Shown: piece by piece, positions 14,536 through 36,933 of the stretch
Layout of the letters: each line of letters starts with the position of its first letter
How positions within the stretch are numbered: the first letter of the stretch is position 1
DNA from: Bacteroidales bacterium
Lineage (GTDB): Bacteria; Bacteroidota; Bacteroidia; Bacteroidales; VadinHA17
Assembly: GCA_029210565.1 (NCBI GenBank)
Contig: JARGFQ010000016.1
Coordinates: 2,313 to 66,312 of the forward strand
Direction of reading: 5' to 3'
Length of the DNA stretch: 64,000 nucleotides
Notes under the pieces: model-generated
What the model was told of the DNA's origin: nothing
The model's input: the letters and a program-made list of their open reading frames with translations, nothing else
The model's database searches: none
Made by a program: the position numbers and the translations under genes

Positions 14536-14537
14536 CT

Positions 14538-14879: not shown

Positions 14880-14889
14880 CGTCCTCCTG

Positions 14890-16984: not shown

Positions 16985-17207
16985 TCCCGCTTACTGAATC
17001 CTCCATCTCCTTCAGGAGACGCAGTGTCTCCATGGCCTCCTCCTCCTTCATCTTCTCTATGGCAAAACCTGCATGAAGCAGGACATAATCCCCGACCCTC
17101 ACCCCTTCAACCATCTGCAGGCCTGCCTGGAATACAACTCCCCCTACGGAGACCTGTCCCATGTCACCCTCAATGGAAATGATGCGTGCAGGAAGACTCA
17201 GACACAT
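16962..17207 (-). CDS. hypC: Hydrogenase assembly chaperone HypC
   Basis: 81 aa with N-terminal MCLSLPARI. It overlaps both hypF and hypD. Confidence 0.92.
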   Translation of the reverse strand: MCLSLPARIISIEGDMGQVSVGGVVFQAGLQMVEGVRVGDYVLLHAGFAIEKMKEEEAMETLRLLKEMEDSVSGSDGDEVC

Positions 17208-19467: not shown

Positions 19468-20121
19468 CTACAAAAATAAAGTCTGCTCTTCCTTCATACG
19501 CCGCACAGAGAGGATCACACTCTCTATCTCATCACTCAGGTTGACATTGTTGACAACCACGTATTGAGGCACCTTAAGCAATACGGGAGAGAAATTCACT
19601 ATACCCCTTATCCCCAGGTTAACAAGTTCATCACACACCTCCTGTGCCGAAATCTCAGGTACGGCAAGAATTGCCACGGTGACACCGAACCGCTCCGTGA
19701 TCTCCTCAAGACGCTCCATGGGGTAGACGTGAATGTCACTCCTGCTCTTATGCTTGTAAGGATCTATATCAAAGGTGGCAACGATATTTATTCCACGCCC
19801 TGCAAACCTTTCATACCGCGATAGAGCCTGACCAAGATTACCCATACCCACCACCACCACATTGCTCTTCCTGTCACGGCTGAAGATAACCTCAATCGCC
19901 CTGATAAGAGACTCCGTAAGATAGCCGCCCCTCCTGTTACCCTTGATTCCATATTCGGAAAAATCCTTCCTCACCTGCTCGGGAGTTACCCCTGCCTTAC
20001 CTGCAAGAGTATAGGAATATACCCGGGTTACCCCCATTGCCTTTAGCCTCATCAATAACCCATGATAGGACAATATCCTCCTCAGGCTGTTCCTGACACT
20101 GTATTTTGTGAATTGTTTCAC
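19468..20121 (-). CDS. rex: Redox-sensing transcriptional repressor Rex
   Basis: 217 aa. N-terminal winged-helix region (RRILSYHGLLMRL...VRKDFSEYG) and a Rossmann NADH site VVVVGMGNLGQAL. GTG start. It lies 27 nt upstream of hypF. Confidence 0.9.
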   Translation of the reverse strand: MKQFTKYSVRNSLRRILSYHGLLMRLKAMGVTRVYSYTLAGKAGVTPEQVRKDFSEYGIKGNRRGGYLTESLIRAIEVIFSRDRKSNVVVVGMGNLGQALSRYERFAGRGINIVATFDIDPYKHKSRSDIHVYPMERLEEITERFGVTVAILAVPEISAQEVCDELVNLGIRGIVNFSPVLLKVPQYVVVNNVNLSDEIESVILSVRRMKEEQTLFL

Positions 20122-20123
20122 AA
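20106..20123. promoter_or_regulatory. Perfect Rex operator overlapping the rex start codon
   Basis: TTGTGAA-TTGT-TTCACAA matches both half-sites of the Rex consensus TTGTGAA-N4-TTCACAA exactly. The rex GTG start (rc of 20119-20121) lies inside the right half-site. Confidence 0.7.
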
Positions 20124-20310: not shown

Positions 20311-21300
20311 ATGTTCTACGCAGGTATCAGGAAAGAAGATTGGCATCGTTCACTGGAAAAACTGCTCACCACTTATGACATTTTTGTTCCGGTGAAAGAT
20401 GAGTTCAGCCTTGACTACGAGCCGTTCAGGCCGGGTCAGGCGGATAGAATAGCATACAACACCCCCAAGCCTGCCACTCCGCTGAAGAATTTCTTTCTCC
20501 CAGTCAGGGAGAATGTGACTTCAGCAAGAGCTGGCAGCAAGCCCAGGATCATCATCGGAGTGCCCAACTGTGACATTGAGGCACTGATGCTACTTGACGA
20601 GATATACCTTGATGAGGTTTTTGCCGATCCCTGGTACCGGAGCAGGAGGGACAGCACCATACTGGTGGCGTCAGACTGCTATACGGTGGATGATCACTGC
20701 CACTGCCTCTCCTATGGGGTAAAGCCCTGGTCCATGGCCCATGCCGATATGGCGATCCTCGCCGAGGGAGACCAGATCTTCCTGAGGGTAATGTCTGAGA
20801 CGGGGAAGGAGATTGCAGAGCAGCTCACTGACATATACAGTGTGGACGATGCTGCTGCTGTCTCTTTTGCGGAGCAGAGGCACAGTGAGACCGAAGAGCT
20901 TCTCACCGCCCTTAATGCAGGGCTCCCTGATTACACTACTACCGGTGAGATCATACAGAAGGCAGGTGATCAGATCTGGGAAAAATATGCCGCAAAGTGT
21001 GTCTCCTGCGGTGCCTGCACCACAATCTGTCCCACATGCAGCTGCTTTCTCCTGATTGACAAGCCCGATTTTGAAAAAGTGAAACAGATGGATGCCTGCC
21101 AGTACCCCGGGTTTGAGAGGGTGGCGGGAGGTGAGGATGCTCTCTTTGAACTTCACCGGCGCTTCAGGAACAGGTATATGTGCAAGTACGTCTGGAGGCC
21201 TCAGCAATTCAACTCCCTGGCTTGCACCGGTTGCGGCAGGTGCATCGAGGCATGTATTGGAAAGATCAATAAGAACGAACTGTTCATGGAACTCACCTGA
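20311..21300 (+). CDS. Sulfhydrogenase beta / AsrA-like 2x[4Fe-4S] electron-transfer subunit
   Basis: 329 aa. Cys clusters CVSCGACTTICPTCSCF and CTGCGRCIEAC. The length and layout match HydB(beta)/AsrA-type proteins. Confidence 0.7.
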   Translation: MFYAGIRKEDWHRSLEKLLTTYDIFVPVKDEFSLDYEPFRPGQADRIAYNTPKPATPLKNFFLPVRENVTSARAGSKPRIIIGVPNCDIEALMLLDEIYLDEVFADPWYRSRRDSTILVASDCYTVDDHCHCLSYGVKPWSMAHADMAILAEGDQIFLRVMSETGKEIAEQLTDIYSVDDAAAVSFAEQRHSETEELLTALNAGLPDYTTTGEIIQKAGDQIWEKYAAKCVSCGACTTICPTCSCFLLIDKPDFEKVKQMDACQYPGFERVAGGEDALFELHRRFRNRYMCKYVWRPQQFNSLACTGCGRCIEACIGKINKNELFMELT

Positions 21301-21308
21301 AAACCGTT

Positions 21309-22136
21309 ATGGACAGCCATACCAATAATATATATAAGCCGCTGCGGGCTACACTTGAGGATGTGATAGAGGAATCACCCCTCATCAAGACTTTCGTCCT
21401 CACTCCCGACGAAGAGTTCGTGTTCAAAACGGGCCAGTTCATCGAGCTCTCCGTTGACGGCGTGGGCGAGGCCCCCTTTACCCCCTCATCATCACCCCTG
21501 GTGACTGACAGGCTCGAAGTCACCGTGATGAAGACAGGATATGTGACCGGCATCATGCATGAGCTTAAGCCGGGAGCCGTGATGGGTATCAGGGGCCCTT
21601 ACGGACGAGGTTACCCTGTCAGTGAATTTGAAGGAAAAGAGGTGCTGATCCTCGGCGGAGGCTGCGGTCTTGCTCCCATAAGGTCGCTGCTCTACACCCT
21701 CGAACACATGAAGGATGACCTCGAGAAGGTGATTCTCTGCTACGGCTCCAAGACACCGGCCGACTGCATCTACAAGCCGCTCTTCAGCAGGCTTAACAGT
21801 ATAGACAAGTTTGAAGCTCACCGCACGGTGGATATAACCGATGACGACTGGGACGGGCCGGTTGGTGTGGCCACCATCCTGCTTGATAACGTAAAGGTAA
21901 GGATTGACAACTCCGTAGCCGTGGTCTGTGGACCACCGATCATGATGAAATTCGGGACTATAAGGCTTCTGGAGATGGGTTACCGTGACGTGCAGATCTA
22001 CCTCTCAATGGAAAAAAACATGTCGTGCGGCCTTGGTAAATGCGGCCACTGCATGATGGGTGAATTTTTCGTCTGCAAGGATGGCCCTGTCTTTACCTAC
22101 AACGAAATAAAACATAATCCTGAAATATGGAAATAA
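21309..22136 (+). CDS. Sulfhydrogenase gamma / AsrB-like FAD-NAD(P)-binding subunit with a C-terminal [2Fe-2S]
   Basis: 275 aa. FNR-like FAD motif region (APFTPSS), NAD(P) loop LILGGGCGLAPI, and C-terminal CGLGKCGHCMMGEFFVCKDGPVF. Confidence 0.75.
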   Translation: MDSHTNNIYKPLRATLEDVIEESPLIKTFVLTPDEEFVFKTGQFIELSVDGVGEAPFTPSSSPLVTDRLEVTVMKTGYVTGIMHELKPGAVMGIRGPYGRGYPVSEFEGKEVLILGGGCGLAPIRSLLYTLEHMKDDLEKVILCYGSKTPADCIYKPLFSRLNSIDKFEAHRTVDITDDDWDGPVGVATILLDNVKVRIDNSVAVVCGPPIMMKFGTIRLLEMGYRDVQIYLSMEKNMSCGLGKCGHCMMGEFFVCKDGPVFTYNEIKHNPEIWK

Positions 22137-22151
22137 CCTAACAAGAATGTC

Positions 22152-22607
22152 ATGAAGGTGGAAATTGATGATCTGAAACAGATCAGATTCTTTGAGAAAT
22201 ACTCTGATGACCAGCTCAGAACGATTGCCATGATATCTTCCATCAGGGAATTCAAGGTTAAGGAAATTCTCTTCGAACAGTATGATGAACTTTCGGAAGT
22301 CTTCGTTTTGCTGTCAGGATCGCTCTCATTGGGTATCAGCCTGCCAAAAGATAAAAGGATACATCTGGGGTCCATTACAGAGGGCCAGCTATTCTCCTGG
22401 TCAGCCGTCTTCCAACCCTACATATCCACCGCATGGGTGATGGCAGTCACTCCTGCCAGGGTAATAGCCATAGATGCACATAAGCTGAATGCAGAGATTG
22501 AGAGGGACTGCGACTTCGGTTTCAAGACCATGTCGAAGATTGCCCAGACTATTTCTCAAAGGCTCAGTGATACAAGGTTCCAGCTCATGAACCAGCTGAA
22601 CCTATAG
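22152..22607 (+). CDS. Stand-alone cyclic-nucleotide-binding-like domain protein (no DNA-binding domain; degenerate phosphate-binding cassette)
   Basis: 151 aa. CNB-fold pattern FFEKYSDDQL...FKVKEILFEQYD...VFVLLSGSL. At the PBC position it has FSWSAV...YISTAWV instead of FGE.A...RSA. Confidence 0.6.
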   Translation: MKVEIDDLKQIRFFEKYSDDQLRTIAMISSIREFKVKEILFEQYDELSEVFVLLSGSLSLGISLPKDKRIHLGSITEGQLFSWSAVFQPYISTAWVMAVTPARVIAIDAHKLNAEIERDCDFGFKTMSKIAQTISQRLSDTRFQLMNQLNL

Positions 22608-22619
22608 ACAGGATAGCTC

Positions 22620-23111
22620 ATGAAGGTGCTTATAGATATGATAGAACTGAGGACTGCCATGACGCAGAACCCGTCTCTCATGCTTCCTGAGGCTCTCTGT
22701 TACAGCTCAGCCAACACCAACGGTCTTAAGACCATACGTGAGCTGGCCACCTTCAGGTTTACATGCCGCAGGTGCGAAGATGCTCCGTGTATTGCCGTAT
22801 GCCCTGCCGATGCCCTTGAAAAGGATGAGGAGGGGGTGATCATGCGCCATACCAACCTCTGCGTCTCGTGCAAGTCGTGCGTCACGATCTGTCCCTTTGG
22901 CACCATGATGACCGATTTCTTCAGCCATCACCGCAATAAAGATCTGCTTTATGATCTGTGTGATCATGAAGAGGCCCTTAAGTTTGTTGAAGCATGCCCG
23001 CCGGGAACGGCGATGCTCACCGATAGAAAGGAAAATCCTAAAGAGCATATCTACAAGCTGAATGAGAAGGTGCTCATCAGGGAATACATTTACGAAACTG
23101 AAAAAGAGTAA
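22620..23111 (+). CDS. HycB/CooF-like 4Fe-4S ferredoxin subunit
   Basis: 163 aa. CRRCEDAPCIAVCP and CVSCKSCVTICP motifs. Confidence 0.75.
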   Translation: MKVLIDMIELRTAMTQNPSLMLPEALCYSSANTNGLKTIRELATFRFTCRRCEDAPCIAVCPADALEKDEEGVIMRHTNLCVSCKSCVTICPFGTMMTDFFSHHRNKDLLYDLCDHEEALKFVEACPPGTAMLTDRKENPKEHIYKLNEKVLIREYIYETEKE

Positions 23112-23122
23112 CGAGCAGGACT

Positions 23123-24052
23123 ATGGCGGTATATCTCTTCTATTTCCTTATCTTCCCGGGATTGCTCTTCATGGCGGTCGCGGGGGCATTACTCTCATGG
23201 TATGACAGGAAGATCACCGCCAGGGTTCAGTTTCGCAAAGGACCGCCTCTGCTTCAGCCCTTCTATGACTTCTTCAAGCTGCTGCTGGTCAAGGAGTCTA
23301 TCCTCCCGAAGCACGGTTCACGCTCCGTCTTCCTTATCGCACCGCTCCTTGGAGTATTCGGGGCGGCGATGGCCGGCCTGTTTATCCTCCTTCCGCTCTT
23401 TGACATAGAGACAGGTTTCAGGGGCGACATAATCGTCATTTTCTACCTGCTCACTCTTCCCTCTTTCTCATATATCATCGGCTCCCTGGCCTCGGGAAAT
23501 CCCCTGGCAGCAGTGGGAGCCTCACGCGAGATGAAGCTGATAATCAGTTATGAGCTCACCTTCCTCCTCGTGGTGGCCGCCGTGATTATGAAGAGCGGAC
23601 AGCAGTTTGACATGAACAGCATCATTGAGACACAGCAGACAGGCAGACCGTTTATCGGAAGCATCTCCGGTGTGCTTCTCTTCGTTGCAGGAGTGTTCTG
23701 CATACAGGCAAAACTGGCACTGGTACCCTTTGACATGCCCGAGGCCGAGACTGAGCTTGCTTCAGGCATATATATAGAATATTCCGGTCCCCCCTACGCG
23801 ATGATAAAACTGGCAAAGTACATCATGTTCTTCATCCTGCCGGCTTTCCTCGTCGCCATACTCTTGAACGGCATGAACCCGGGCATAAACATCATCTGGT
23901 TCATACTGAAGATCCTCGGAGTGGTGCTTCTGCTCACACTGATAAGAAATACCAACCCGAGACTGAAGATAAAGCAGGCATCCGGCTTCTTTCTCATATG
24001 GATGAACCTGCTTGTTGTCGTAGCCATTGTGCTGATTGCATTCGGATTATAA
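23123..24052 (+). CDS. NuoH / HycD / MbhM-like membrane subunit
   Basis: 309 aa, about 8 TM segments. NuoH-type motifs RKITARVQFRKGP and LVPFDMPEAETEL. Confidence 0.85.
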   Translation: MAVYLFYFLIFPGLLFMAVAGALLSWYDRKITARVQFRKGPPLLQPFYDFFKLLLVKESILPKHGSRSVFLIAPLLGVFGAAMAGLFILLPLFDIETGFRGDIIVIFYLLTLPSFSYIIGSLASGNPLAAVGASREMKLIISYELTFLLVVAAVIMKSGQQFDMNSIIETQQTGRPFIGSISGVLLFVAGVFCIQAKLALVPFDMPEAETELASGIYIEYSGPPYAMIKLAKYIMFFILPAFLVAILLNGMNPGINIIWFILKILGVVLLLTLIRNTNPRLKIKQASGFFLIWMNLLVVVAIVLIAFGL

Positions 24053-24063
24053 AAACACAGACC

Positions 24064-24477
24064 GTGGGCTTCAAGGATTATTGTTTCAGGAAATCACTCT
24101 GGGTCTTTCACTTCGGGGGAGCATCATGCAACAACTGTGATATCGAGATCCTTGATTGCCTGACACCGAGGCATGACCTTGAACGCTTTGGCATTTTGCT
24201 GGTGGGAAGCATAAGGCACGCCGATGTGCTGCTGGTCAACGGCTCCATCAACCGCCGCGACAGGGACCGGCTGCTGGAACTCTACAGGCAGGCACCAAAA
24301 CCTATCCTCGTGGTGGCCATAGGCGCCTGCGGATGCACCGGAGGGATCTTTGCCGAGGGCAACACCTTTGCCGGGCCCGTCGACAAGATCATCCCGGTAG
24401 ATGCCTACATCCCGGGATGCCCCCCTAAACCCGAGGCTATAATTGCAGGAATAGTAAAACTGGCAGGGAAAAAATAG
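24064..24477 (+). CDS. Group-4 [NiFe]-hydrogenase small subunit (NuoB / MbhJ-like)
   Basis: GTG start just after the nuoH-like stop. Proximal-cluster Cys residues: GGASCNNCDIE, GACGCTGG, PGCPP. Confidence 0.85.
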   Translation: MGFKDYCFRKSLWVFHFGGASCNNCDIEILDCLTPRHDLERFGILLVGSIRHADVLLVNGSINRRDRDRLLELYRQAPKPILVVAIGACGCTGGIFAEGNTFAGPVDKIIPVDAYIPGCPPKPEAIIAGIVKLAGKK

Positions 24478-24487
24478 CGATAAAGGC

Positions 24488-24925
24488 ATGGATACAGAGG
24501 CAGCCATTAACAAACTGACAGGTAAATTCATCGATGAAATTGCCGAAGTGACCCTCCAGAAGGGCAAACGCGCAATCGTCACCATCAGGCCCACCGCCCT
24601 CCTCACCCTCTCCGAATACCTCTTTAAAAGCGAAGGCTTCAGGTTTATCATTGCCTCAGCCATGCATACCAGGCGTGGCTTTGAAATATACTACCACTTT
24701 AGCCTCGATGCTGACGGAATAATACTCAGCCTCCATGTCATCCTTGACAAAGAGAAACCGCATATTGAATCTCTCTCCAACATGTTCAGCGCATCAAACT
24801 GGATAGAGAGAGAGATGCATGAACTCTTCGGCATTGACTTCCTCCACCATCCCAACCAGGAGAAACTGCTCTCTGAGGGCAACTGGGCTGAGGGTGTCTA
24901 CCCTTACCGGAAAGAGTTCAAATAA
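24488..24925 (+). CDS. NuoC / MbhK-like subunit
   Basis: 145 aa. NuoC-type C-terminal region ANWIEREMHELFGIDF. Confidence 0.8.
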   Translation: MDTEAAINKLTGKFIDEIAEVTLQKGKRAIVTIRPTALLTLSEYLFKSEGFRFIIASAMHTRRGFEIYYHFSLDADGIILSLHVILDKEKPHIESLSNMFSASNWIEREMHELFGIDFLHHPNQEKLLSEGNWAEGVYPYRKEFK

Positions 24926-24938
24926 CACCCTGACAACC

Positions 24939-26144
24939 ATGAGCAGAAAAACACTCATACCGATAGGACCCTACCACCCGCTCCAGGAAGAGCCTGAACT
25001 CTTCAAGCTATACTGCGACGGAGAGATTGTCAGGGATATCAAATGGGAGACCGGCTACAACCACCGCGGCATAGAGAAACTGAGTGAGTCAAAGAGCTAT
25101 GACCAGGTCTTCTTCCTTGTCGAACGTATCTGCGGTATCTGCTCCACCTCCCACCCCTTCGCCTTCGCCAACGCCGTGGAAGAGATAGTCGGTGTCGAGA
25201 TCACTGACAGGACCAAATACATCAGGTCTGTCATCGGGGAGCTTGAACGAATCCACAGCCACCTTCTCTGGGTAGGCCTCGCAGGCCATTTTCTGGGTTA
25301 CAACACTGTCTTCATGTGGGCGTGGAAGTACCGCGAGCCCATTCTTGACCTCTTCGAGATGATAACAGGCAACAGGAACAGCTATGCCATGTTCAAGGTA
25401 GGTGGCGTAAGACGAGACATCGAGAAGAGCAAGATACCGGCCATCAGGAGGGAGATGGGCGTCATACGCAAGAAGCTGGACCTCCTCACGGGAGCGGTCA
25501 TGGATGACCCTGTCATACATGCCAGAACCAAAGGCGTGGGAATCCTGACACGGCAGGACATAATCGATTACGCTGCCGTGGGGCCCACCGCCAGGGCATC
25601 AGGCGTTGACATCGATGTGCGCAGGGATGACCCCTATGCAGCATACCCGCTAGTCAACTGGAAGGTGATAACGGCCGGGGCCGGAGATGTCTTCGCCAAA
25701 GCTGAGGTGAGGCTTCTTGAGATGTACGAATCGGCCTCAATTATTGAACAGTGTCTTGATGCACTCGAAAAACTGGAAGAGGGTAATATTGCGCTGAAGA
25801 TAAATGAGATACCCGCCGGGATAGGAACCGGGCGGGCTGAAGCGCCCAGGGGAGAAGTGTTCCACTTCGTCGTCTCCGACGGCTCCAACTCGCCGGCAAG
25901 GCATAAGATACGAGCCCCGAGCTATACCAACATAGCAACATTCAAAAAATCATGCATCGGACAGACTATCGCCGATGCCACTATCTCTCTCGCGGCAGTT
26001 GATCCCTGCTACTGCTGCACCGAGAGAATGGCAGCAGCCTATGACAGCTCTTCAGGGGAGAAGATCCTCAATGCCAATGAGCTCATTGAGATTTCAATGA
26101 AGAGAACAAAAGAATTAAGGAAATCAGAAGCAGGTCATGAATGA
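24939..26144 (+). CDS. Group-4 [NiFe]-hydrogenase large (catalytic) subunit (MbhL / EchE / HycE-like)
   Basis: Starts MSRKTLIPIGPYHPLQEEP. NiFe ligand motifs ERICGICSTSH (N-terminal) and DPCYCCTER (C-terminal), followed by a ~35-aa tail. The track ORF starting at 24819 overlaps the nuoC-like gene. Confidence 0.9.
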   Translation: MSRKTLIPIGPYHPLQEEPELFKLYCDGEIVRDIKWETGYNHRGIEKLSESKSYDQVFFLVERICGICSTSHPFAFANAVEEIVGVEITDRTKYIRSVIGELERIHSHLLWVGLAGHFLGYNTVFMWAWKYREPILDLFEMITGNRNSYAMFKVGGVRRDIEKSKIPAIRREMGVIRKKLDLLTGAVMDDPVIHARTKGVGILTRQDIIDYAAVGPTARASGVDIDVRRDDPYAAYPLVNWKVITAGAGDVFAKAEVRLLEMYESASIIEQCLDALEKLEEGNIALKINEIPAGIGTGRAEAPRGEVFHFVVSDGSNSPARHKIRAPSYTNIATFKKSCIGQTIADATISLAAVDPCYCCTERMAAAYDSSSGEKILNANELIEISMKRTKELRKSEAGHE

Positions 26145-28038
26145 GCCACTTGCCATATTAGCTGAACCGTCTGCATGCTGGATGCTCCAGATGCTGATAA
26201 TGATACCTCTGGCTGCAGGGTTACTGCTTTTCCTGGTCCCCGAAAGGTTCCGGATGGCCAAAGGAATACTGGCTATGGCTGTGACCCTGTACGCCGGATA
26301 CCTCTCTCTCGGCCTTTACACCTCCGCCAAACAGATGATCATGCAGGGAGAAACAGTCAGACAGGGCTGCCTCACCCTCTTTGACTTCGACCTCCTGCAG
26401 AAGGCCGGTGAATACCTTACATTCACCGTCGACGGCCTCAGCAAGCTGATCGTTCTGTTTGTCAGCATCCTGGCCATACTGATACTGCTATATACAATTG
26501 TCTACAACAGGACCGCAAAAGTACCTGGATACTACCAGTGGTTCCTCATCACCCTGGGCTGCACCTACGGTGCCGTGCTCTCTGACAACCTGATCCTCTT
26601 CATCATGTTCTGGGGTATCCTCGGCATCACCCTGTACAAGCTGATACCCGGGAGGGACGAGGAGAGCTCCGCTGCTGCCAAAAAGACCATGATACTTATC
26701 GGGGCATCAGACACCATCATGCTCCTGGGCATCGCTCTCCTCTGGAGACTCACTGACACCCTGAGCATTAACGGCATATCCCTGGAGACCAATAACATTC
26801 TTACTGTCACGGCATTCCTTGCCCTGCTTGTCGGCAGCTTCACCAAGGCCGGCGCCTTCCCGTTCCATTCGTGGGTACCTGATTACGCCACCAACGCCCC
26901 TGCATCCTCATCAGCCCTGCTGCCCGCGTCACTCGACAAGCTGCTGGGAATATACTTCCTGGCCAGGATCACAAACGACCTGTTCATAATGACCCAGGGT
27001 ATTAAACTTACAATGCTTATCATCGGTGTAATAACAATCATCACAGCCGTACTGATGGCATTGATGCAGCACGACTATAAGCGGCTGCTCGGTTATCATG
27101 CCGTTTCCCAGGTGGGTTACATGATAGTCGGTTTTGGCCTCGGATCGCTTGTGGGAATAGCAGCAGGACTCTTCCACATGATAAACAACGCACTTTACAA
27201 GAGTGGCCTCTTCCTGGCTGCCGGTGCAGTGGAACAACGTACAGGAAAGAGTGACATCAGTGATCTGGGAGGCCTCTCCGGGGCTATGCCCGTGACATTC
27301 GTCGCCTCCCTGATCTTCGCCATGTCAATCTCAGGGGTCCCTCCTTTCAACGGCTTTGCATCCAAATGGATGATATACCAGGGGATAATTGATTTCGGGG
27401 CCGGTGACGGTATAGCCTCAAGCCTCTGGATAGTATGGCTCGGACTGGCAGTGCTCGGCTCAGCACTGACGCTGGCCAGCTTCATAAAATTCATCGGGGG
27501 GATCTTCCTCGGAAGAAGAGAGCCCTGGCTCGATAAAATCAGGGAGGTGCCCTTCCTGATGTGGGCCCCGATGGCAATACTGGCACTCTTCTGCGTCCTC
27601 TTCGGCGTCTTCGCTACAGAGGTTGTAATCCCCCGACTCTTCACCCCCGTGGTCGGTGCTTTCACCTTCAACGGACTCTGGAGCTCATCCTTCGTCTCCC
27701 TGCTTGTCTTGATATCAATTATCCTTGGCCTGCTCATCTACCTCGCTGCCGGGAAGAAGAAATTCAGGACAGAAGAGAGCTTTATCGGCGGTGAAACGGT
27801 GGAGAAGCTCGGAGCTTCATATCCGGCTCCCGAGTTCTACAAGACCTTTACCGAGTTCGGCCTTTTCTCAAAAATCTATAAAAGAGCCGAAGCGAAGGCC
27901 TTCGACATCTATGACCTCTCAAAAGGGGCTGTTCTCTGGCTCAGCGAAAGGTTGAGCAGTGCTCATACCGGCGTGCTCCCAGGATATGTCATCTGGGTAT
28001 GCGCCGGACTGATAATCATGTTGCTGATAATGATCTGA
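26137..28038 (+). CDS. NuoL/MrpA/MbhH-class antiporter-like subunit
   Basis: 633 aa, polytopic. FPFHSWVPDYATNAPASSSALL motif. ATGAATGA overlap with the large subunit. Confidence 0.85.
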   Translation: MNEPLAILAEPSACWMLQMLIMIPLAAGLLLFLVPERFRMAKGILAMAVTLYAGYLSLGLYTSAKQMIMQGETVRQGCLTLFDFDLLQKAGEYLTFTVDGLSKLIVLFVSILAILILLYTIVYNRTAKVPGYYQWFLITLGCTYGAVLSDNLILFIMFWGILGITLYKLIPGRDEESSAAAKKTMILIGASDTIMLLGIALLWRLTDTLSINGISLETNNILTVTAFLALLVGSFTKAGAFPFHSWVPDYATNAPASSSALLPASLDKLLGIYFLARITNDLFIMTQGIKLTMLIIGVITIITAVLMALMQHDYKRLLGYHAVSQVGYMIVGFGLGSLVGIAAGLFHMINNALYKSGLFLAAGAVEQRTGKSDISDLGGLSGAMPVTFVASLIFAMSISGVPPFNGFASKWMIYQGIIDFGAGDGIASSLWIVWLGLAVLGSALTLASFIKFIGGIFLGRREPWLDKIREVPFLMWAPMAILALFCVLFGVFATEVVIPRLFTPVVGAFTFNGLWSSSFVSLLVLISIILGLLIYLAAGKKKFRTEESFIGGETVEKLGASYPAPEFYKTFTEFGLFSKIYKRAEAKAFDIYDLSKGAVLWLSERLSSAHTGVLPGYVIWVCAGLIIMLLIMI

Positions 28039-28050
28039 CACAAATAGACT

Positions 28051-28578
28051 ATGGAACTGGCAATATCGGTAATAGTAATTTTCATGATACTGGGTGCCAT
28101 CTATGCCATCCATGCCAGCGATATTCTTTCAGCAGTGATAGCAGGAGGCATAGTGGGCTATAGCCTCGTAATCTGTTTCCTCCTGCTGAAGGCGCCCGAC
28201 CTGGCAATAGTGCAGATAGTGGTGGAGACCATCACACTGATCATAATGGTGGCGGTGGTGCTTGACAGCTCGCGAAAAGAGGCATACGGTAAGTTTGACA
28301 CCCAGGCCTGGGTCACTGCAGCCACGGCCGTCGTAATACTGGCGATCCTCTTCTGGTTCCTGAAAGAGGCTTCAGCGCCCCTTGCCCCATTCGGTGAGAA
28401 TACAATGAGGATGGCCGATGCTTATGTAAACGGAGCCGTCGATAAGACCGGAAGTGTCAACCTTGTCACCGGAGTGCTTTTTGACTTCAGGGGATACGAT
28501 ACCCTCGGCGAGGCTACGGTGCTGGTCACAGCAGTGCTCGGCGTATTGACGATTCTCAGGATAAGAGGCAGGAAATGA
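28051..28578 (+). CDS. MbhD/MbhE-like (DUF4040 + MnhB N-terminal type) membrane subunit
   Basis: 175 aa. DLAIVQIVVE and FDFRGYDTLGEATV motifs. Confidence 0.7.
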   Translation: MELAISVIVIFMILGAIYAIHASDILSAVIAGGIVGYSLVICFLLLKAPDLAIVQIVVETITLIIMVAVVLDSSRKEAYGKFDTQAWVTAATAVVILAILFWFLKEASAPLAPFGENTMRMADAYVNGAVDKTGSVNLVTGVLFDFRGYDTLGEATVLVTAVLGVLTILRIRGRK

Positions 28579-28580
28579 AG

Positions 28581-28623
28581 GAATTAAGAATTAAGAGGTG
28601 TGAGTTGAGAATTAAGAATTAGG
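28581..28623. repeat. GAATTAAG-type octamer repeats inside the operon
   Basis: GAATTAAGAATTAAGA-GGTGTGAGTTGA-GAATTAAGAATTAGG fills the 49-nt gap between two Mrp-like genes. Confidence 0.8.
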
Positions 28624-28627
28624 CCAC

Positions 28628-29065
28628 ATGAAAGGAATGACAGTCATAGTAAAGAAGACGACGCAGCTGATAGCCGGGATTGTTTTTCTCTACGGGATCT
28701 ATATCATACTGCACGGTCATCTTACCCCCGGTGGCGGGTTCGCCGGAGGGGTTATCGTAGCAGGGTCGTTCATCCTACTGATCCTGGCTTACGGAAGTGA
28801 TTTCCTGAACCTGGTGAAGGAGGAGAGAGGGTCAACGACATATGAAAACCTCGCCATTCTTGTCTTCCTTTTCCTTGCGCTTACAGGAATGGTTGCAGGG
28901 GTAGGGATCTTCTTCGCCAACTGGCTGCCCCACGGTACCCCCGGCGAGCTTGTCAGCGCGGGCTTCCTCCCGCTTTACAATATATTCGTTGGGATCGAGG
29001 TCGCCGCTTCAATACTTACAATCTTCCTGGCCCTGATAATCTTTAAAGAGGAGGTGTTGAAATGA
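28628..29065 (+). CDS. MnhB / MrpB / MbhF-like subunit
   Basis: 145 aa, 4 TM segments. HGHLTPGGGFAGGVI motif. Confidence 0.8.
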   Translation: MKGMTVIVKKTTQLIAGIVFLYGIYIILHGHLTPGGGFAGGVIVAGSFILLILAYGSDFLNLVKEERGSTTYENLAILVFLFLALTGMVAGVGIFFANWLPHGTPGELVSAGFLPLYNIFVGIEVAASILTIFLALIIFKEEVLK

Positions 29066-29400
29066 CAGTTTATTGGCTCTGCTTTATACTGTTCCTGGTA
29101 GGACTGTATGGAGTGATCACCAGGAGAAACCTGATCAAGATAGCGATATCGCTCTCCGTCATGGAGTTCAGCTGCTTTCTCTTCCTGGCCCTGATTGGGT
29201 ATACTGAGGGAGGGGCCGCCCCTATCGTTGATACTGCTGACCCGGTAAAGATATATGTTGACCCGTTGCCACAGGCAATGGTATTGACGGCAATTGTGAT
29301 CGGACTGGCCACGACAGCCATGCTGATGGCTGTTATTATCCGGATATACAGAAAATACGGGACTTTTGACATAAGAGAGATAAATAACTTAAGAGGGTAA
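29062..29400 (+). CDS. MnhC / MrpC / NuoK / MbhG-like subunit
   Basis: 112 aa, 3 TM segments. 4-nt overlap with the upstream gene. Confidence 0.8.
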   Translation: MTVYWLCFILFLVGLYGVITRRNLIKIAISLSVMEFSCFLFLALIGYTEGGAAPIVDTADPVKIYVDPLPQAMVLTAIVIGLATTAMLMAVIIRIYRKYGTFDIREINNLRG

Positions 29401-30942
29401 ATGATGAATCCGCTGATACCGCTTTTCGTAGCCGTACCTCTTGCCGGGGCTTTCCTGACAATGATACTGGGCAGGTTCATTACAGCTATCCCCAGGTATA
29501 TGGCGCTGGCTGTGCTGCTCTTCCTGGCCTTCATCAGCTTCTGGTCACTGGTCGTGGGCGGGGATGGATCATCAGTCTATACACTTGGCGGCTGGGAGCC
29601 CGTCGATGGGGTTCCCATAGGTCTGTACCTGGTCCATGACGGTTTCTCGGCACTGCTGCTCTGCCTCATAAGCCTTGTAGGTCTCCTGTCAGTCACCTAC
29701 TCAGTCTCCTACATGGCAAGGTACACCTCCGAAAATTACTTCTACTCCCTCTTCTGCCTGATGATAGCAGGCATGAACGGAGTGGTGCTCAGCGGAGACA
29801 TCTTCAATATCTACGTCTTCCTGGAGATATCTGCCATCTCATCCTACGCACTCGTCGCCTTCGGGGTTGAGAAGAATGAACTTGAGGCCACACTCAAATA
29901 CCAGATCCTGGGGGTCGTCGCCTCATTCATGATACTCTTTGCCATCGGATTCATCTACTGGAGTGCAAAGACACTGAATATTGCAGATATCCGTACCGTC
30001 TTCAGTGCTGGTCACGACAACAGGTATTATCTTCTGATACAGTTACTGCTTCTCACCGGTTTTGGCCTCAAGGCTGCCATGATACCATTCCACGCGTGGC
30101 TGCCTGATGCCCACTCATCGGCCCCCTCTCCCATCTCGGCAATGCTCTCCGGGGTGCTTATCAAGGCGGTAGGCATCTATGTGATCATTCGCCTCTTCTT
30201 CAATATGTTCGAAGTTACAGAGGGCATGTCAATAGTTATCACCACCCTTGGCGCGCTCTCAATGGCTGTTGGCGTCTTCCTGGCTATCGGTCAGTGGGAC
30301 ATCAAGCGGCTGCTGGCCTATCACAGCATCAGCCAGATGGGTTACGTGGTCATGTCGGTGGGAATAGGAATGATACTCATGGCCAGGGGCATCCGGAGCG
30401 AGGTAGCCGCCCTCGCTATCACCGGGGGCATCTTTCATATGCTCAACCATGCTGCCTTCAAGGGACTGCTCTTCCTCAACGCGGGGGCCATAGAGTATTC
30501 AGTCGGCACCCGTGACCTAAGGGAGATGGGCGGACTGGCAAAGGGCATGCCGGTAACCTCCGCCACTTCGCTGGTCGCCTCACTCTCAATATCCGGCATA
30601 CCACCCTTCAATGGCTTCTTCAGCAAACTGATAATTATAGTGGCAGCAGTGATGGGCCGCTTTTATTTCCTGGCTCTCCTTGCGGTCATAGTGAGTATCA
30701 TTACACTGGCCTCCTTCATGAAGTTCCAGCGCTATGCCTTCTACAATATTGATCCCGGAAAGATCAGGAACGACATAAAAGAGGTGCCAGCGCCCATGTT
30801 GCTGAGCATGATCACCCTGGCTGTCGTCTGCCTGCTGCTCAGCCTGCTGGCGCTGCCCGGCCTCCGCGAGACGGTACTCTCACCCGCAACGGACATTCTG
30901 ATGGACCAGCTCAAATATTCCTCACAGATAACAGGCATGTGA
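29401..30942 (+). CDS. MrpD / NuoN-class antiporter-like subunit (second one)
   Basis: 513 aa. IPFHAWLPDAHSSAPSPISAMLSGVLIK motif. Confidence 0.88.
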   Translation: MMNPLIPLFVAVPLAGAFLTMILGRFITAIPRYMALAVLLFLAFISFWSLVVGGDGSSVYTLGGWEPVDGVPIGLYLVHDGFSALLLCLISLVGLLSVTYSVSYMARYTSENYFYSLFCLMIAGMNGVVLSGDIFNIYVFLEISAISSYALVAFGVEKNELEATLKYQILGVVASFMILFAIGFIYWSAKTLNIADIRTVFSAGHDNRYYLLIQLLLLTGFGLKAAMIPFHAWLPDAHSSAPSPISAMLSGVLIKAVGIYVIIRLFFNMFEVTEGMSIVITTLGALSMAVGVFLAIGQWDIKRLLAYHSISQMGYVVMSVGIGMILMARGIRSEVAALAITGGIFHMLNHAAFKGLLFLNAGAIEYSVGTRDLREMGGLAKGMPVTSATSLVASLSISGIPPFNGFFSKLIIIVAAVMGRFYFLALLAVIVSIITLASFMKFQRYAFYNIDPGKIRNDIKEVPAPMLLSMITLAVVCLLLSLLALPGLRETVLSPATDILMDQLKYSSQITGM

Positions 30943-30943
30943 T

Positions 30944-31429
30944 ATGAGATACGTGACAGTTTTTATATTATCCATGATCTTCTGGCTCCTGATCACCTTC
31001 AGATTCACGGTGTCGAATATTGTTGCAGGAGCCGCTGTTGCAGCCATAACGTCAGCCATCTTCGGCAGGTACTACTTCCATAATGTGGGCAAATTCCTCC
31101 AGCCGAGGCGCTGGTTCTGGTTCCTGGTATACCTTGTCACATTCATCTGGGCATGCATAAAGGCCAACTTCGATGTAGCCTACCGTGTGCTCCATCCGGG
31201 TATGCCAATCAGACCGGGAATAGTGAAGGTGAAGACCACCCTGCGGTCCGACTTCGCCCGGACACTGCTTGCCAATTCGATTACTATGACGCCGGGGACG
31301 ATCACCGTCGACATTATCGGCGATGAGATGTATATCCACTGGATCTATATCCGGTCTGAAGACCCTGCGGTATATTCCAGGATGGTGACCGGGAGATTTG
31401 AAGAGTACATTAAAAAATTTGCGGAATGA
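30944..31429 (+). CDS. MnhE / MrpE / MbhA-like subunit
   Basis: 161 aa. NSITMTPGTITVD motif. Confidence 0.8.
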   Translation: MRYVTVFILSMIFWLLITFRFTVSNIVAGAAVAAITSAIFGRYYFHNVGKFLQPRRWFWFLVYLVTFIWACIKANFDVAYRVLHPGMPIRPGIVKVKTTLRSDFARTLLANSITMTPGTITVDIIGDEMYIHWIYIRSEDPAVYSRMVTGRFEEYIKKFAE

Positions 31430-31692
31430 CCACTTTCCTGAATATCCTGCTTTACATACAGATTGCACTGTGCGCAGCCTGCCTCTACCGGATTGTCAGG
31501 GGGCCTACCATACCCGACCGGATGGTAGGCATAGACATATTCGGGATACTGGTGGTAGGAATCTGCGGAATCATATCGGTGCTGACAGACAAGGCCTTTA
31601 TCCTCGATATCGGCATTGCCTGGGTAATATTGAGTTTTATAGGAACCCTTACGCTGGCAAAATACCTCAGCGGCAAAAAACTGAACGAGTGA
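31426..31692 (+). CDS. MnhF / MrpF / MbhB-like subunit
   Basis: 88 aa. RIVRGPTIPDRMVGID motif. Confidence 0.8.
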   Translation: MTTFLNILLYIQIALCAACLYRIVRGPTIPDRMVGIDIFGILVVGICGIISVLTDKAFILDIGIAWVILSFIGTLTLAKYLSGKKLNE

Positions 31693-31693
31693 T

Positions 31694-32011
31694 ATGGCAG
31701 CTGTGATCTTAATATCGGTAGGAGTCCTCTTTAATCTCTTCGGGTGTCTGGGCCTCCTGAGGCTGCCGGACATGTACAACAGGTTGCAGGCAGCAACAAA
31801 GTGCGTGACGCTGGGATGCTGCAGCATCCTCCTGGGTGTCATGTTTCACTACGGTCTCGGCAGTGCCGGCTTCCGTGCCCTGGTGGCTATCCCGGTGCTC
31901 TTCTTTACAGCCACCGTGGCTGCACACGCCCTGGTCAGGGGCGCATACCATTTCGGAACGAAAATGGACAAAAGGAGTGTGAAAGATGATTATAGTGAGA
32001 TAGTAAAATGA
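31694..32011 (+). CDS. MnhG / MrpG / MbhC-like subunit
   Basis: 105 aa. LRLPDMYNRLQAATKCVTLG motif. Confidence 0.8.
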   Translation: MAAVILISVGVLFNLFGCLGLLRLPDMYNRLQAATKCVTLGCCSILLGVMFHYGLGSAGFRALVAIPVLFFTATVAAHALVRGAYHFGTKMDKRSVKDDYSEIVK

Positions 32012-32105
32012 AACTTGCATGAGCTAAAGCTTACAAAAGGATTTGATTACTAATTTTCATGCAAGTTCCATTCGACCAATACAATAAATTTTTCAGATAC
32101 GAATG
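32010..32105 (+). repeat. Copy B of the structured leader element, located inside the [NiFe] operon
   Basis: GAAACTTGCATGAGC-N33-TTCATGCAAGTTCCATTCGACCAATACAATAAATTTTTCAGATACGAATG. It begins at the mnhG-like stop and ends on the nuoI-like start codon. Confidence 0.8.
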
Positions 32106-32723
32106 AAGTACCCTAAACTTAGAGAGCTGAAAGAGGCAGTGACATCACTGGTAACACCTGCATATACCTCAAATTTTCCGGCCGGGGGCCATGTGCCCTT
32201 CAAGGATTTTAGGGGTAAGCCTGTTGTTGATGATGCCAACTGTGTGGGGTGTGAGACATGTGCCAATGTATGTCCCCCGCTGGCGATCACCTTCACTGAC
32301 GACAGGGAGAAGAAGATCCGTACCATCAGGCGGGATTACGGCAAGTGCATCTTCTGCGGCCAGTGCCAGGAGCATTGCATCACGGGCAAGGGAGTGAAAC
32401 TCTCCGACACCATCTTCGATATGGCTGCCTTCGACAGGTCAGCCGTCGTGGAGTACCAGGAAAAGGAGTTGCTGGTGTGCGAGAACTGTGGCGCCATAAT
32501 AACAACAGTCGAGCACCTCAGCTATATGCACCGCAAGCTCGGACCTAAAGCCTTTGCATCAATACTCAACCTCAACATCCTGAACCGTAAGCTGAAACTG
32601 GCTGAGGGACAGGATCTCTCGGCAGAGATAGACGAGACACTCCAGAGAAAGGATATGTTTAATGTCATCTGCCCTAACTGCCTGCGGCAGGTAACCGTCA
32701 AGTATCTTATCAGAGGTGCCTGA
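32103..32723 (+). CDS. NuoI / MbhN-like 2x[4Fe-4S] subunit with a C-terminal Cys4 extension
   Basis: 206 aa. CVGCETCANVCP and CIFCGQCQEHC motifs, plus extra CENC...CPNC pairs in the last ~85 aa. Confidence 0.8.
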   Translation: MKYPKLRELKEAVTSLVTPAYTSNFPAGGHVPFKDFRGKPVVDDANCVGCETCANVCPPLAITFTDDREKKIRTIRRDYGKCIFCGQCQEHCITGKGVKLSDTIFDMAAFDRSAVVEYQEKELLVCENCGAIITTVEHLSYMHRKLGPKAFASILNLNILNRKLKLAEGQDLSAEIDETLQRKDMFNVICPNCLRQVTVKYLIRGA

Positions 32724-33171
32724 GAACCTGACAGACCTTCTTTCGGACAAAAACCGGAAAATCCTCTTCGTCGGCATAGGAAACATCCTGCGACAGGATG
32801 ACGGAGCAGGTGTATATGTCAGCACACATATAAACGAAACAGAAACCATAAGAGTGCTGACTCCGGAAGTCAGCATCGAGAACTATATCGGGAAAATCAA
32901 CTCCATTGACCATGATACCCTCGTGCTGATCGACTGTGCAGACATTAAAAAGCCACCCGGAACATGGGAACTGATACCCGTGGAGCAGATCAGGGACCTC
33001 ACCTTCAATACTCATAACATCTCACTCAGACGACTCTCTGAATTCTTTGAAAATGAAGTGCTGATACTCACAATTCAGCCGGAAACTGTTGCTTTCGGAG
33101 AAAATTTATCGTATATTGTACATGAAGCTTGTAACAAAATTGTCGGACTGATTAACAAAAAGGAGGTATAA
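32716..33171 (+). CDS. Hydrogenase maturation endopeptidase (HycI/HyaD family)
   Basis: 151 aa. ILFVGIGNILRQDDGAGVYV motif. GTG start overlapping the upstream stop. Confidence 0.85.
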   Translation: MPENLTDLLSDKNRKILFVGIGNILRQDDGAGVYVSTHINETETIRVLTPEVSIENYIGKINSIDHDTLVLIDCADIKKPPGTWELIPVEQIRDLTFNTHNISLRRLSEFFENEVLILTIQPETVAFGENLSYIVHEACNKIVGLINKKEV

Positions 33172-33172
33172 A

Positions 33173-33586
33173 ATGGCGATAGAATATTTATGCAAGGCCT
33201 GCAGAGGACACCTTAAGGTCAAATCATCAATAGTGCTCTCTGCCACCAAGATCAACAGCTCAACGAGAGGGCTTGTCTTACTGAACCCTGAGCTGGGAAA
33301 CTACACGAAAACAACCCACCCGTCGTTTGAAATGGAGAAGGGTTCCGAGTACCTGATAAACTGTCCCATCTGCCACTCCCAACTCAACAGCATGAAGTAT
33401 CCTCACCTGGTCAGGATCATCATGGTTGATGAGAATAGTAAGGAATTTGACATCTATTTCTCGGGTATCGTAGGGGAAAACTGCACCTACAAGATCAGTG
33501 AGACAGGGGTGGAAAAGAGCGGTCCCGATGCAAATCTCTATGATAAGTACTTCGATGTCCCCAGGGAGGACAGGAAGTATCTCTGA
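33173..33586 (+). CDS. Hypothetical Cys4 (zinc-ribbon-like) protein, last gene of the hydrogenase operon
   Basis: 137 aa. The CKAC (aa 7-10) and CPIC (aa 64-67) pairs are present. It starts 1 nt after the protease stop. I recognise no family. Confidence 0.5.
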   Translation: MAIEYLCKACRGHLKVKSSIVLSATKINSSTRGLVLLNPELGNYTKTTHPSFEMEKGSEYLINCPICHSQLNSMKYPHLVRIIMVDENSKEFDIYFSGIVGENCTYKISETGVEKSGPDANLYDKYFDVPREDRKYL

Positions 33587-33629: not shown

Positions 33630-33702
33630 CTTCGACGCAGGAGAAGACTCAATCCCGACCACGAAGTGCGTCGGAACGGCAGCCTGTAGGCCGCAGAACC
33701 TG

Positions 33703-33873
33703 TATTGTAGCATAGGCCGTAGCATTAAGGTATTGTAGCATAGGCCGTAGGCATTCAGGTCTTGTAGCATATGCCGTAGCATTAAGGTATTGTAGCATAG
33801 GCCGTAGGCATTCAGGTATTGTGCATATGCCGTAGGCATTCAGGTATTGTGGCATATGCCGTAGGCATTCAGG
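33703..33873. repeat. Tandem array of six 28/29-nt repeats with no spacers
   Basis: Units start at 33703, 33731, 33760, 33788, 33817 and 33845. The consensus is TATTGTAGCATAGGCCGTAGGCATTCAGG. Each unit holds a small ATGCC-GTA-GGCAT hairpin or a GCATATGC palindrome. Confidence 0.9.
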
Positions 33874-34852: not shown

Positions 34853-34883
34853 ACCCCTGTTTCACCAAACAAAATATTTAGCT

Positions 34884-35669: not shown

Positions 35670-35732
35670 ATAACACACTACAGAATGAATCCCGCATCAA
35701 CCAGAGATCAAAAATGGATCTGATCATTGATT

Positions 35733-35772
35733 AAATGCAGGTGCCATTCGTCCAATAACCCTCTATCAAATG
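35733..35772 (+). repeat. Degenerate 3-prime remnant (copy C) of the leader element
   Basis: AATGCAGGTGCCATTCGTCCAATAACCCTCTATCAAATG compared with CATGTAAGTTCCATTCGACCAAT...ATG. Confidence 0.45.
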
Positions 35773-36897: not shown

Positions 36898-36933
36898 CCG
36901 TCGGCATAAACCATAGACATCGTTACACGTAAT

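Follow-up and report, generated by a model that had tools for sequence, protein, structure and literature searches.

Here, we describe a 19-gene operon in a 64,000-nt stretch of DNA from Bacteroidales bacterium (GenBank assembly GCA_029210565.1, contig JARGFQ010000016.1, positions 2,313 to 66,312, the whole of which is called the window below). We consider it probable, at roughly 60%, that this operon encodes one multisubunit, ion-translocating membrane NAD(P)H:H+ oxidoreductase, in short an NAD(P)H hydrogenlyase, under the control of the redox-sensing repressor Rex. The original prediction, made from the sequence and its open reading frames (ORFs), had placed a sulfhydrogenase/AsrAB-type module and a HycB-like wire together with an Mrp-linked group-4 [NiFe]-hydrogenase, and the in silico comparisons reported here support that placement. 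By our analysis, the most economical reading of the plan would be that of formate hydrogenlyase (FHL) or of Fdh-Mfh-Mnh, with a beta/gamma pair replacing FdhF. The 19 genes are as follows, with domain calls made using Pfam and NCBIfam models; comparisons with solved structures are sequence matches to chains of the Protein Data Bank (PDB).

20311-21300, +: g1, sulfhydrogenase-beta/AsrA-like iron-sulfur (Fe-S) subunit, 329 amino acids (aa) (Pfam Fer4_22, 1.8e-22)
21309-22136, +: g2, sulfhydrogenase-gamma/AsrB-like FAD, NAD(P) and [2Fe-2S] subunit, 275 aa (Pfam FAD_binding_6, NAD_binding_1, DHODB_Fe-S_bind)
22152-22607, +: g3, stand-alone cyclic nucleotide (cNMP)-binding-domain protein, accessory, 151 aa (Pfam cNMP_binding, 2e-11)
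22620-23111, +: g4, HycB/CooF-like [4Fe-4S] ferredoxin, proposed connector, 163 aa (Pfam Fer4_11)
23123-24052, +: g5, NuoH/MbhM-like membrane anchor (Pfam NADHdh, 4.8e-64)
24064-24477, +: g6, NuoB-like hydrogenase small subunit (Pfam Oxidored_q6, 1.8e-31)
24488-24925, +: g7, NuoC-like subunit (Pfam Complex1_30kDa, 6.9e-22)
24939-26144, +: g8, group-4 [NiFe]-hydrogenase large subunit, 401 aa (Pfam NiFeSe_Hases and Complex1_49kDa)
26137-28038, +: g9, MrpA/NuoL-like antiporter subunit, 633 aa (Pfam Proton_antipo_M, 3.6e-59)
28051-28578, +: g10, fusion of MbhD and MbhE, MrpA C-terminal-like (Pfam MbhD, 6.5e-16; MbhE, 1.6e-9)
28628-29065, +: g11, MrpB/MnhB-like (Pfam MnhB, 2.1e-23)
29062-29400, +: g12, MrpC/NuoK-like (Pfam Oxidored_q2, 1.3e-28)
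29401-30942, +: g13, MrpD/NuoL-M-N-like antiporter subunit, 513 aa (Pfam Proton_antipo_M, 3.9e-66)
30944-31429, +: g14, MrpE-like (Pfam MNHE, 9e-43)
31426-31692, +: g15, MrpF-like (Pfam MrpF_PhaF, 1.2e-13)
31694-32011, +: g16, MrpG-like (Pfam PhaG_MnhG_YufB, 1.3e-22)
32103-32723, +: g17, HycF/NuoI-like 2x[4Fe-4S] subunit, 206 aa (Pfam Fer4_7, Fer4)
32716-33171, +: g18, HycI-type large-subunit maturation endopeptidase (Pfam HycI; NCBIfam TIGR00072, 85.8 bits vs a cutoff of 47.45)
33173-33586, +: g19, conserved 137-aa Cys4 protein (no Pfam or NCBIfam match)

An ORF check of the window confirmed 19 co-directional, tightly packed ORFs on the + strand between 20311 and 33586, in agreement with the original prediction in coordinates and packing alike, and 18 of the genes carry the Pfam domains expected from its gene-by-gene assignments, g19 having no Pfam match. 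The start of the large-subunit gene was corrected to 24939 (MSRKTLIPIGPYHP..., yielding a protein of 401 aa, the length of its homologues), and an in-frame ATG farther upstream, at 24819, was rejected as a start on the same ground. For the NuoB-like gene, the ORF is open from 23998 and homologues are called as 137 aa; its start is probably the GTG at 24064. Adjacent genes overlap by up to 8 nt or lie at most 15 nt apart, except at two junctions with gaps of 49 and 91 nt, and the gaps separating g1 through g5 measure 8-15 nt. Terminator-like sites are not in excess within the operon (14 found vs 11.9 expected from shuffled sequence), and comparison of related loci reveals only one conserved promoter/operator footprint in the operon, the region upstream of beta. 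The short gaps, the lack of terminator excess, and the single footprint before beta support a prediction that the operon is one transcription unit.

The gene order is conserved across several phyla. A beta-alignment scan of one genome per species confirmed 509 relatives, and the locus counts given throughout refer to the best 80 of these 509, all of them metagenome-assembled genomes (MAGs); the nearest public locus among the 80 kept, from Bacteroidales bacterium UBA4772, has 95-98% aa identity, which speaks for a Bacteroidota origin of the operon. The original prediction had proposed a search for the beta/gamma-CNB-HycB-Mbh order across genomes, and the order beta-gamma-(x)-HycB-NuoH-NuoB-NuoC-large subunit-Mrp was found in 77 of the 80 loci, the other three ending at contig ends, such that it is kept in all loci of sufficient length (77/77). 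It persists down to 31% beta identity, in carriers labeled Bacteroidota, Cloacimonadota, Omnitrophota, Aerophobetes, Neomarinimicrobiota, WOR-3, and Actinomycetota. The divergence of beta, gamma, and HycB follows that of NuoH, NuoC, and the large subunit (Spearman 0.82-0.94) and that of the two antiporter-like subunits (Spearman 0.60-0.82). As sampling was seeded from beta, these counts say that the nearest beta homologues are always hydrogenase-linked; the converse does not follow. Three further loci that were retrieved via the large subunit (L081-L083) contain the whole operon, including g17, the HycI gene, and a 137-139-aa ORF. Homologues of the large subunit number more than 8000, and one of them is listed in 116 blocks of the assembly collection. 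The composition of the operon had been put forward as uncharacterised, least of all known in Bacteroidota; the first part stands, while the implied rarity does not, the operon being very frequent among Bacteroidales MAGs recovered from digesters, sediments, and lakes.

At the head of the operon, the beta and gamma subunits are homologous over their full length to those of the group 3b enzymes SHI and SHII (9NEZ) and to AsrAB, with conserved cofactor motifs. The sole match of g1 among solved structures is Pyrococcus furiosus SHI beta (PDB 9nez_B, 3.3e-29, residues 2-319), with which all cysteine groups line up, and the best for g2 is SHI gamma (PDB 9nez_C, 6.3e-49), in which the nucleotide-binding loop (GGGCGLAP) and the [2Fe-2S] motif (CGxGKCGHC...CKDGPVF) are aligned. 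Among NCBIfam models, ShyB, HydB, and AsrA all match g1 at scores under their cutoffs (111 bits vs 323 for AsrA), and AsrB matches g2 with 194 bits vs a cutoff of 289. Because the HydB/G, ShyB/C, and AsrA/B equivalogs as a whole match g1 and g2 with scores far under cutoff, the two proteins represent a separate beta/gamma clade. Unlike in SHI, SHII, and AsrABC, the partner here is a membrane group-4 enzyme rather than a group-3 alpha/delta pair or the sirohaem protein AsrC: the group-3 alpha/delta subunits are replaced by group-4 subunits, the HydA and ShyA models reach just 27-38 bits against cutoffs of 700-880, leaving hydrogenase subunits of the group-4 type only, and a Pfam search of the 19 genes found no nitrite/sulfite reductase domain.

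Two ferredoxin-like subunits are candidates for the wire between this module and the hydrogenase. The PDB matches of g4, which is found in 77/77 sufficiently long loci, comprise the polyferredoxin 9mqx_E at the top, HycB3/HycB4 of HDCR, and HycB of FHL (7z0s_B), whereas g17 is closest to HycF (7z0s_F, 2.9e-15) ahead of MbhN (6cfw_N, 2.1e-11). Given that g4 is HycB-like and g17 HycF-like, the pair corresponds to the two ferredoxins by which E. coli FHL (7z0s) links FdhF to its hydrogenase. Enzymes of groups 4a and 4b, in which FdhF or CODH is attached via HycB/CooF-type ferredoxins, set a precedent for such modularity. The structure 9mqx was rejected as a hydrogenase complex, the chain being the polyferredoxin of a tungsten aldehyde oxidoreductase (PMC12318220). 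The C-terminus of g17 (residues ~116-193) contains a ~65-residue CxxC...CxxC region (CENCG...CPNCL) that lies outside the HycF and MbhN alignments and may serve as an additional metal site or for docking.

Between gamma and HycB lies a variable slot. The original prediction had described a beta/gamma-CNB-HycB head, of which beta, gamma, and HycB proved invariant, whereas the cNMP-binding gene g3 occurs in only about 25 of 78 loci. The closest relatives (L001-L003) lack it; in these, the gamma-to-HycB gap is 16 nt, and the flanking genes of relatives without it are 88-98% identical. It reappears in more distant Bacteroidales at 80-90% identity, a patchiness that points to recent loss or gain at a fixed site. 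This distribution led us to reject the cNMP-binding protein as a core subunit. A domain search of g3 found no DNA-binding domain, and the position of the expected phosphate-binding Arg reads I-S-T-A by eye from the translation; the protein is accessory and possibly regulatory. In the distant WOR-3 locus L079, and only there, the same slot is occupied by a 556-aa degenerate molybdopterin (Fdh-like) gene (5653-7323).

Downstream of the connector, the hydrogenase itself is of group 4 and appears intact. Both NiFe ligand motifs that had been noted originally, RICGICSTSH and DPCYCC, are found in g8, which conforms to the group-4 pattern of a NuoD-like protein with RxCGxCxxxH and DPCxxC motifs, and NuoB-, NuoC-, NuoH-, and NuoI-like genes stand alongside it. 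Its best PDB match is MbhL (6cfw_L, 7e-83, 282 bits), followed by HycE (7z0s_E, 1e-76, 261 bits) and MbsL (169 bits). Past ...DPCYCCTER, g8 continues for 38 aa in a C-terminal extension that aligns with that of HycE, while the MbhL chain in the structure stops at ...CTDR, and the extension is consistent with the presence of a HycI gene. Together with the adjoining hyp cluster described below, HycI and the extension point to a functional [NiFe] hydrogenase. The genes g9 through g16 make up a full MrpA-G-like set in mrp gene order, as in Mrp-linked group 4 hydrogenases of the HydDB 4b/4d type.

The last gene, g19, had been noted as a Cys4 ORF. Its 284 homologues are every one hypothetical, all from Bacteroidales, and 71-86% identical, and a counterpart of 137-139 aa sits at the same position in L081-L083; as the genes downstream differ or are unrelated in those loci, g19 is taken as the last gene of the operon. 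An AlphaFold2 (AF2) model built on 30 homologues (pLDDT 79.5) retrieved nothing significant from the PDB with Foldseek (best E 0.39, TM 0.2-0.3), and the best-scoring structures, a cereblon CULT and a Yippee Zn beta-tent domain, were not assigned on account of these insignificant scores.

A rex gene and candidate Rex sites, absent from the original prediction as are the hyp cluster and an [FeFe]-hydrogenase operon, lie directly upstream of beta:

19468-20121, -: rex, redox-sensing (NADH/NAD+) repressor, divergent from the operon (Pfam Put_DNA-bind_N and CoA_binding)
20106-20123, no strand: perfect Rex box TTGTGAATTGTTTCACAA at the start of rex, 0 mismatches to TTGTGAANNNNTTCACAA
20290-20307, no strand: palindromic predicted operator ATGTGAATCTTCTCACAT, 3 nt before the beta start codon, 3 mismatches to the Rex consensus

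The Rex protein scores 201.9 bits with NCBIfam NF003996 (cutoff 138), and 52 of 76 loci have a rex gene ahead of beta, mostly divergent and about 190 nt off. The box at the rex start is kept at about -205 from beta in most Bacteroidales loci, and the palindrome before beta is near-invariant across Bacteroidales loci while its flanks diverge; it is preceded by a conserved TAnnTTTA box that we likened by eye to the Bacteroidetes -7 promoter element. Boxes with at most 3 mismatches within 60 nt upstream of beta are present in 46/78 loci, compared to 1% of random 60-nt windows, and six distant loci (L034, L035, L049, L075, L077, and L080), including Aerophobetes and unclassified bacteria, have a Rex-like box with at most 1 mismatch. 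The palindrome is less likely to be a CRP-type site: TGTGA-N6-TCACA is the CRP core as well, and g3 has a cNMP-binding domain, but g3 lacks a DNA-binding domain, rex adjoins in most loci, and several loci fit the full 14-base Rex consensus. A Rex protein and a TTGTGAAnnnnTTCACAA-type predicted operator at the promoter are thus both in place, as expected of a member of the Rex regulon. Rex-family repressors are relieved at high NADH. Because the predicted operator overlaps the beta promoter, Rex bound there would be expected to hold back the whole operon and to release it as NADH/NAD+ rises, which suggests that its role is the disposal of surplus NAD(P)H as H2.

From the homology of the modules, we infer how such a complex would assemble and the route that electrons would take through it, along with its likely nucleotide specificity, ion coupling, ion species, and direction of reaction. 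NAD(P)H would reduce the FAD of gamma, from which electrons would pass to the gamma [2Fe-2S] cluster, the [4Fe-4S] clusters of beta, g4, g17, and the proximal cluster of g6, and finally to the [NiFe] site of g8, where protons would be reduced to H2. The NuoH-like anchor and the MrpA-G-like module would couple this near-equilibrium reaction to the movement of H+ or Na+, and, because the NAD(P)H/H2 reaction lies near equilibrium, the enzyme should be reversible: at low H2, as maintained by syntrophic partners, energy would be conserved, and at high H2 the ion gradient would be spent. Calculated from standard potentials, NAD(P)H to H2 costs +18 kJ/mol at 1 bar H2. The calculated potential of the H+/H2 couple is about -296 mV when H2 is at 10 Pa, a level at which oxidation of an NADPH pool near -370 mV would come to about -14 kJ/mol, comparable to the range of P. 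furiosus MBH; NADH near -280 mV would be close to equilibrium by the same calculation and would need an ion gradient or H2 near 1 Pa.

Several points weigh against an NAD(P)H hydrogenlyase. Ion pumping on the NAD(P)H/H2 couple works only at low H2 or at a high NADPH/NADP+ ratio. Rex also governs ferredoxin-dependent hydrogenases in other anaerobes, and Rex control is therefore no proof of NAD(P)H use. Rex senses NADH and SHI is NADPH-specific, such that the nucleotide preferred by gamma may be NADH or NADPH. A neighboring [FeFe] HydABC-like operon could already serve NADH-linked H2 production. Finally, an orthologue in Candidatus (Ca.) Tenebribacter has been assigned to the ferredoxin-coupled Group 4g (PMC8542988), although by default and not by experiment. 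HydDB describes group 4g as loosely clustered, of undetermined function, and putatively ferredoxin-coupled (PMC5037454), and studies of Ace Lake placed the Mrp-linked Mbh of Ca. Tenebribacter and its relatives in this group, with ferredoxin assumed as the donor (PMC8542988, PMC9324843). One of our loci, L061, comes from the Ca. Tenebribacter mawsonii MAG 3300035698_1174; it has the beta/gamma-HycB head, and its large subunit is 72% identical to g8.

Similar gene sets have been remarked upon in silico. Matheus Carnevali et al. (2019) described an "enigmatic" group-4 region in Saganbacteria RX5A with Mrp-like subunits, an unclassifiable molybdopterin protein, cooF, and asrA/asrB-like genes (PMC6349859), and a paper of September 2026 reported that group-4b clusters containing a degenerate Fdh also carry homologues of SHI-beta/gamma, and proposed bifurcation from AlphaFold models (PMC13582414). 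Both share with the present operon the combination of beta/gamma, a CooF/HycB-like ferredoxin, and an Mrp-linked hydrogenase, and the Fdh-like gene in the slot of L079 ties the Bacteroidales operon to them. Unlike those clusters, which are described in silico only, the Bacteroidales operon has no molybdopterin subunit, its slot being empty or filled by the cNMP-binding gene. That no enzyme of such composition has been characterised, as originally supposed, agrees with our literature search, which found no biochemical study of beta/gamma-Mrp-linked group-4 hydrogenases, only the remarks in PMC6349859 and PMC13582414. The Bacteroidales operon is thus neither a categorically new system nor a rare one; its form, with no molybdopterin subunit, a full Mrp set, and Rex, is an uncharacterised variant of a modular group-4 family.

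Comparison with characterised complexes places this variant within that family. It resembles P. furiosus MBH (group 4d, 6CFW) in its NuoH/B/C/D/I-type module with an intact [NiFe] site and in its Mrp-derived membrane subunits (MbhD/E, MnhB, NuoK, and MrpD/E/F/G-like). MBH, however, is ferredoxin-only and has neither a flavoprotein nor a HycB-like subunit, both of which are present here, and it has one antiporter-like subunit against two in the operon (g9 and g13); the operon therefore departs from the P. furiosus type, which is marked by a single antiporter-like subunit and the absence of a substrate-oxidising module. It also differs from MBH in its order, with the hydrogenase core first, mrpA-G after it, and the NuoI-like gene last, as well as in the HycE-like C-terminal extension of the large subunit and the HycI gene. 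The wiring is closer to that of E. coli FHL-1 (group 4a, 7Z0S), in which a soluble oxidising module is connected to a group-4 hydrogenase via HycB/CooF-type and HycF/NuoI-type subunits, and the Fdh-Mfh-Mnh and CODH-Mch-Mnh complexes of Thermococcus onnurineus (group 4b) follow the same logic, with a full Mrp/Mnh module after the hydrogenase. What differs from these is the input, a beta/gamma NAD(P)H flavoprotein pair in place of FdhF or CODH: Pfam detected no molybdopterin domain and no Ni-CODH gene among the 19 operon genes.

The strongest rival to an NAD(P)H hydrogenlyase, though an unlikely one in our estimate, is a dual-donor, confurcating enzyme, in which ferredoxin would enter via exposed clusters of g17, g4, or beta and NAD(P)H via gamma, both feeding the [NiFe] site, such that an exergonic ferredoxin branch would pay for NAD(P)H oxidation and pumping, like HydABC on a membrane. 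The core is Mbh-like and Mbh is ferredoxin-driven (PMC8165549), and bifurcation or confurcation has been proposed for the group-4b clusters with SHI-beta/gamma and an Fdh-like subunit (PMC13582414), a type to which the Bacteroidales operon is related through L079 and the Fdh-like gene between its gamma and HycB. A domain search of the 19 genes found, however, one FNR-type FAD, no Bfu-type HydB, and no NfnB-like subunit, so that the operon does not have the makeup of a bifurcating hydrogenase (Bfu/HydABC, Nfn), and the upstream hydABC-like genes form another operon. In addition, SHI beta/gamma are non-bifurcating according to the citation of Xiao et al. (2025) in PMC13582414, and an uncoupled double entry would amount to a short circuit from ferredoxin to NAD(P)+.

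Somewhat less probable still is that the hydrogenase is a ferredoxin-only Mbh/Mrp enzyme and that beta, gamma, and g4 are a co-transcribed, soluble NAD(P)H:ferredoxin-type oxidoreductase with g4 as a diffusible carrier. "Group 4g, ferredoxin-coupled" is the default of the literature (PMC8542988, PMC9324843, PMC5037454), and beta/gamma modules do serve other partners, namely those of SHI and AsrC. Against a soluble oxidoreductase stand the strict gene order across phyla with its 5-40-nt junctions, the hydrogenase linkage of all the best beta homologues retrieved, and the nature of the ferredoxins, since g17 resembles HycF more than MbhN and g4 resembles HycB, and such a pair is a fixed wire in FHL. 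Even so arranged, the net chemistry would be unchanged, from NAD(P)H to H2.

We think it improbable that the enzyme runs chiefly toward uptake, with H2 oxidation yielding NAD(P)H and driving ion pumping, which was the second option of the original prediction. Textbook standard potentials give the reaction of H2 with NAD(P)+ an energy yield of about 18 kJ/mol at 1 bar H2, and SHI is reversible, but Rex would derepress the operon when NADH is already high, which fits disposal better than production, and the carriers are, to judge from record titles, fermentative Bacteroidales of low-H2 habitats. Very improbable is a sulfur or polysulfide reductase like MBS, or a sulfhydrogenase side activity in place of hydrogenase activity: beta and gamma derive from "sulfhydrogenase" and MBS shares the Mrp-linked architecture (6u8y matches), yet all four Ni-Fe Cys ligands are kept, HycI, the large-subunit C-terminal extension, and the hyp cluster are present, and g8 matches MbhL with 282 bits vs 169 for MbsL.

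The genes next to the operon also relate to hydrogen metabolism, and the rex/hyp/[FeFe]/group-4 region is a hydrogen-metabolism island:

13876-19441, -: hypF-hypC-hypD-hypE-hypA-hypB [NiFe] maturation cluster, downstream of rex (Pfam HypF domains, HupF_HypC, HypD, AIRS/AIRS_C, HypA, cobW/HypB)
13242-13703, -: NuoE-like [2Fe-2S] protein of the [FeFe]-hydrogenase operon
12063-13223, -: NuoF-like protein, 386 aa, without the C-terminal ferredoxin domains typical of bifurcating HydB
10262-12112, -: HydA, [FeFe] hydrogenase

The arrangement of the hyp cluster is shared by L081-L083. The [FeFe]-hydrogenase operon (10262-13703, -) lies directly downstream of it, and a Rex-like box with 3 mismatches occurs at 13760-13777, in the gap upstream of that operon. 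A sodium:alanine symporter and an SNF-family sodium symporter (6956-10086, -) adjoin the island; these two Na+-coupled transporters are compatible with a sodium-based membrane economy and are not evidence for it. On the other side, the 424-nt gap after g19 contains about six tandem copies of a 28-29-nt unit (GTATTGTAGCATAGGCCGTAGGCATTCAG and variants) at 33702-33872, an array that is not CRISPR-like, as it has no spacers. A transketolase gene directly follows the operon in L081-L083, and in the window 6-phosphogluconate dehydrogenase (48813-50261) and transketolase (50302-52335) come only after some 16 kb of other genes beyond g19. This added region (34010-48800), which opens with genes for hexuronate/pectin use (KduI, SDR, DUF4861, GH88, UxaE, UxaC, and MFS) and also carries a LarA-N-like protein and a 2-hydroxyacid dehydrogenase, has the appearance of an insertion specific to this lineage.

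Central to anaerobic bioenergetics is the question of how fermenters and syntrophs rid themselves of NAD(P)H by forming H2. The known routes are electron-confurcating [FeFe] hydrogenases and reverse electron transport via Rnf plus Ech or Mbh. If our prediction is true, a single complex that links NAD(P)H, H2, and an ion gradient would be a third route and a functional intermediate between Mbh and complex I (Nuo). The operon is like complex I in combining an NAD(P)H flavoprotein module, an Fe-S wire, a NuoB/C/D/H/I module, and antiporter-like pumps; it is unlike complex I in that beta, gamma, and HycB are not homologous to NuoEFG and in that the predicted acceptor is H+ at the [NiFe] site and not quinone. 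Only tentatively would we go further and suggest a respiratory enzyme of a class not recognised before, an NAD(P)H dehydrogenase akin to complex I with protons as its terminal acceptor, no ferredoxin, and no bifurcation. Should this be so, NAD(P)H to H2 would be exergonic enough for ion pumping at about 1-10 Pa H2, as maintained by partner organisms, with Rex as the switch, and electron flow from NAD(P)H to H2 would conserve energy in the uncultured Bacteroidales, Cloacimonadota, and other lineages that abound in digesters and sediments. The conserved predicted Rex operator offers a directly testable regulatory prediction. Metabolic reconstructions that score "Mbh, group 4g" as ferredoxin-dependent (PMC8542988) would, if the main prediction holds, mis-assign both the redox carrier and the H2 thresholds of the carriers.

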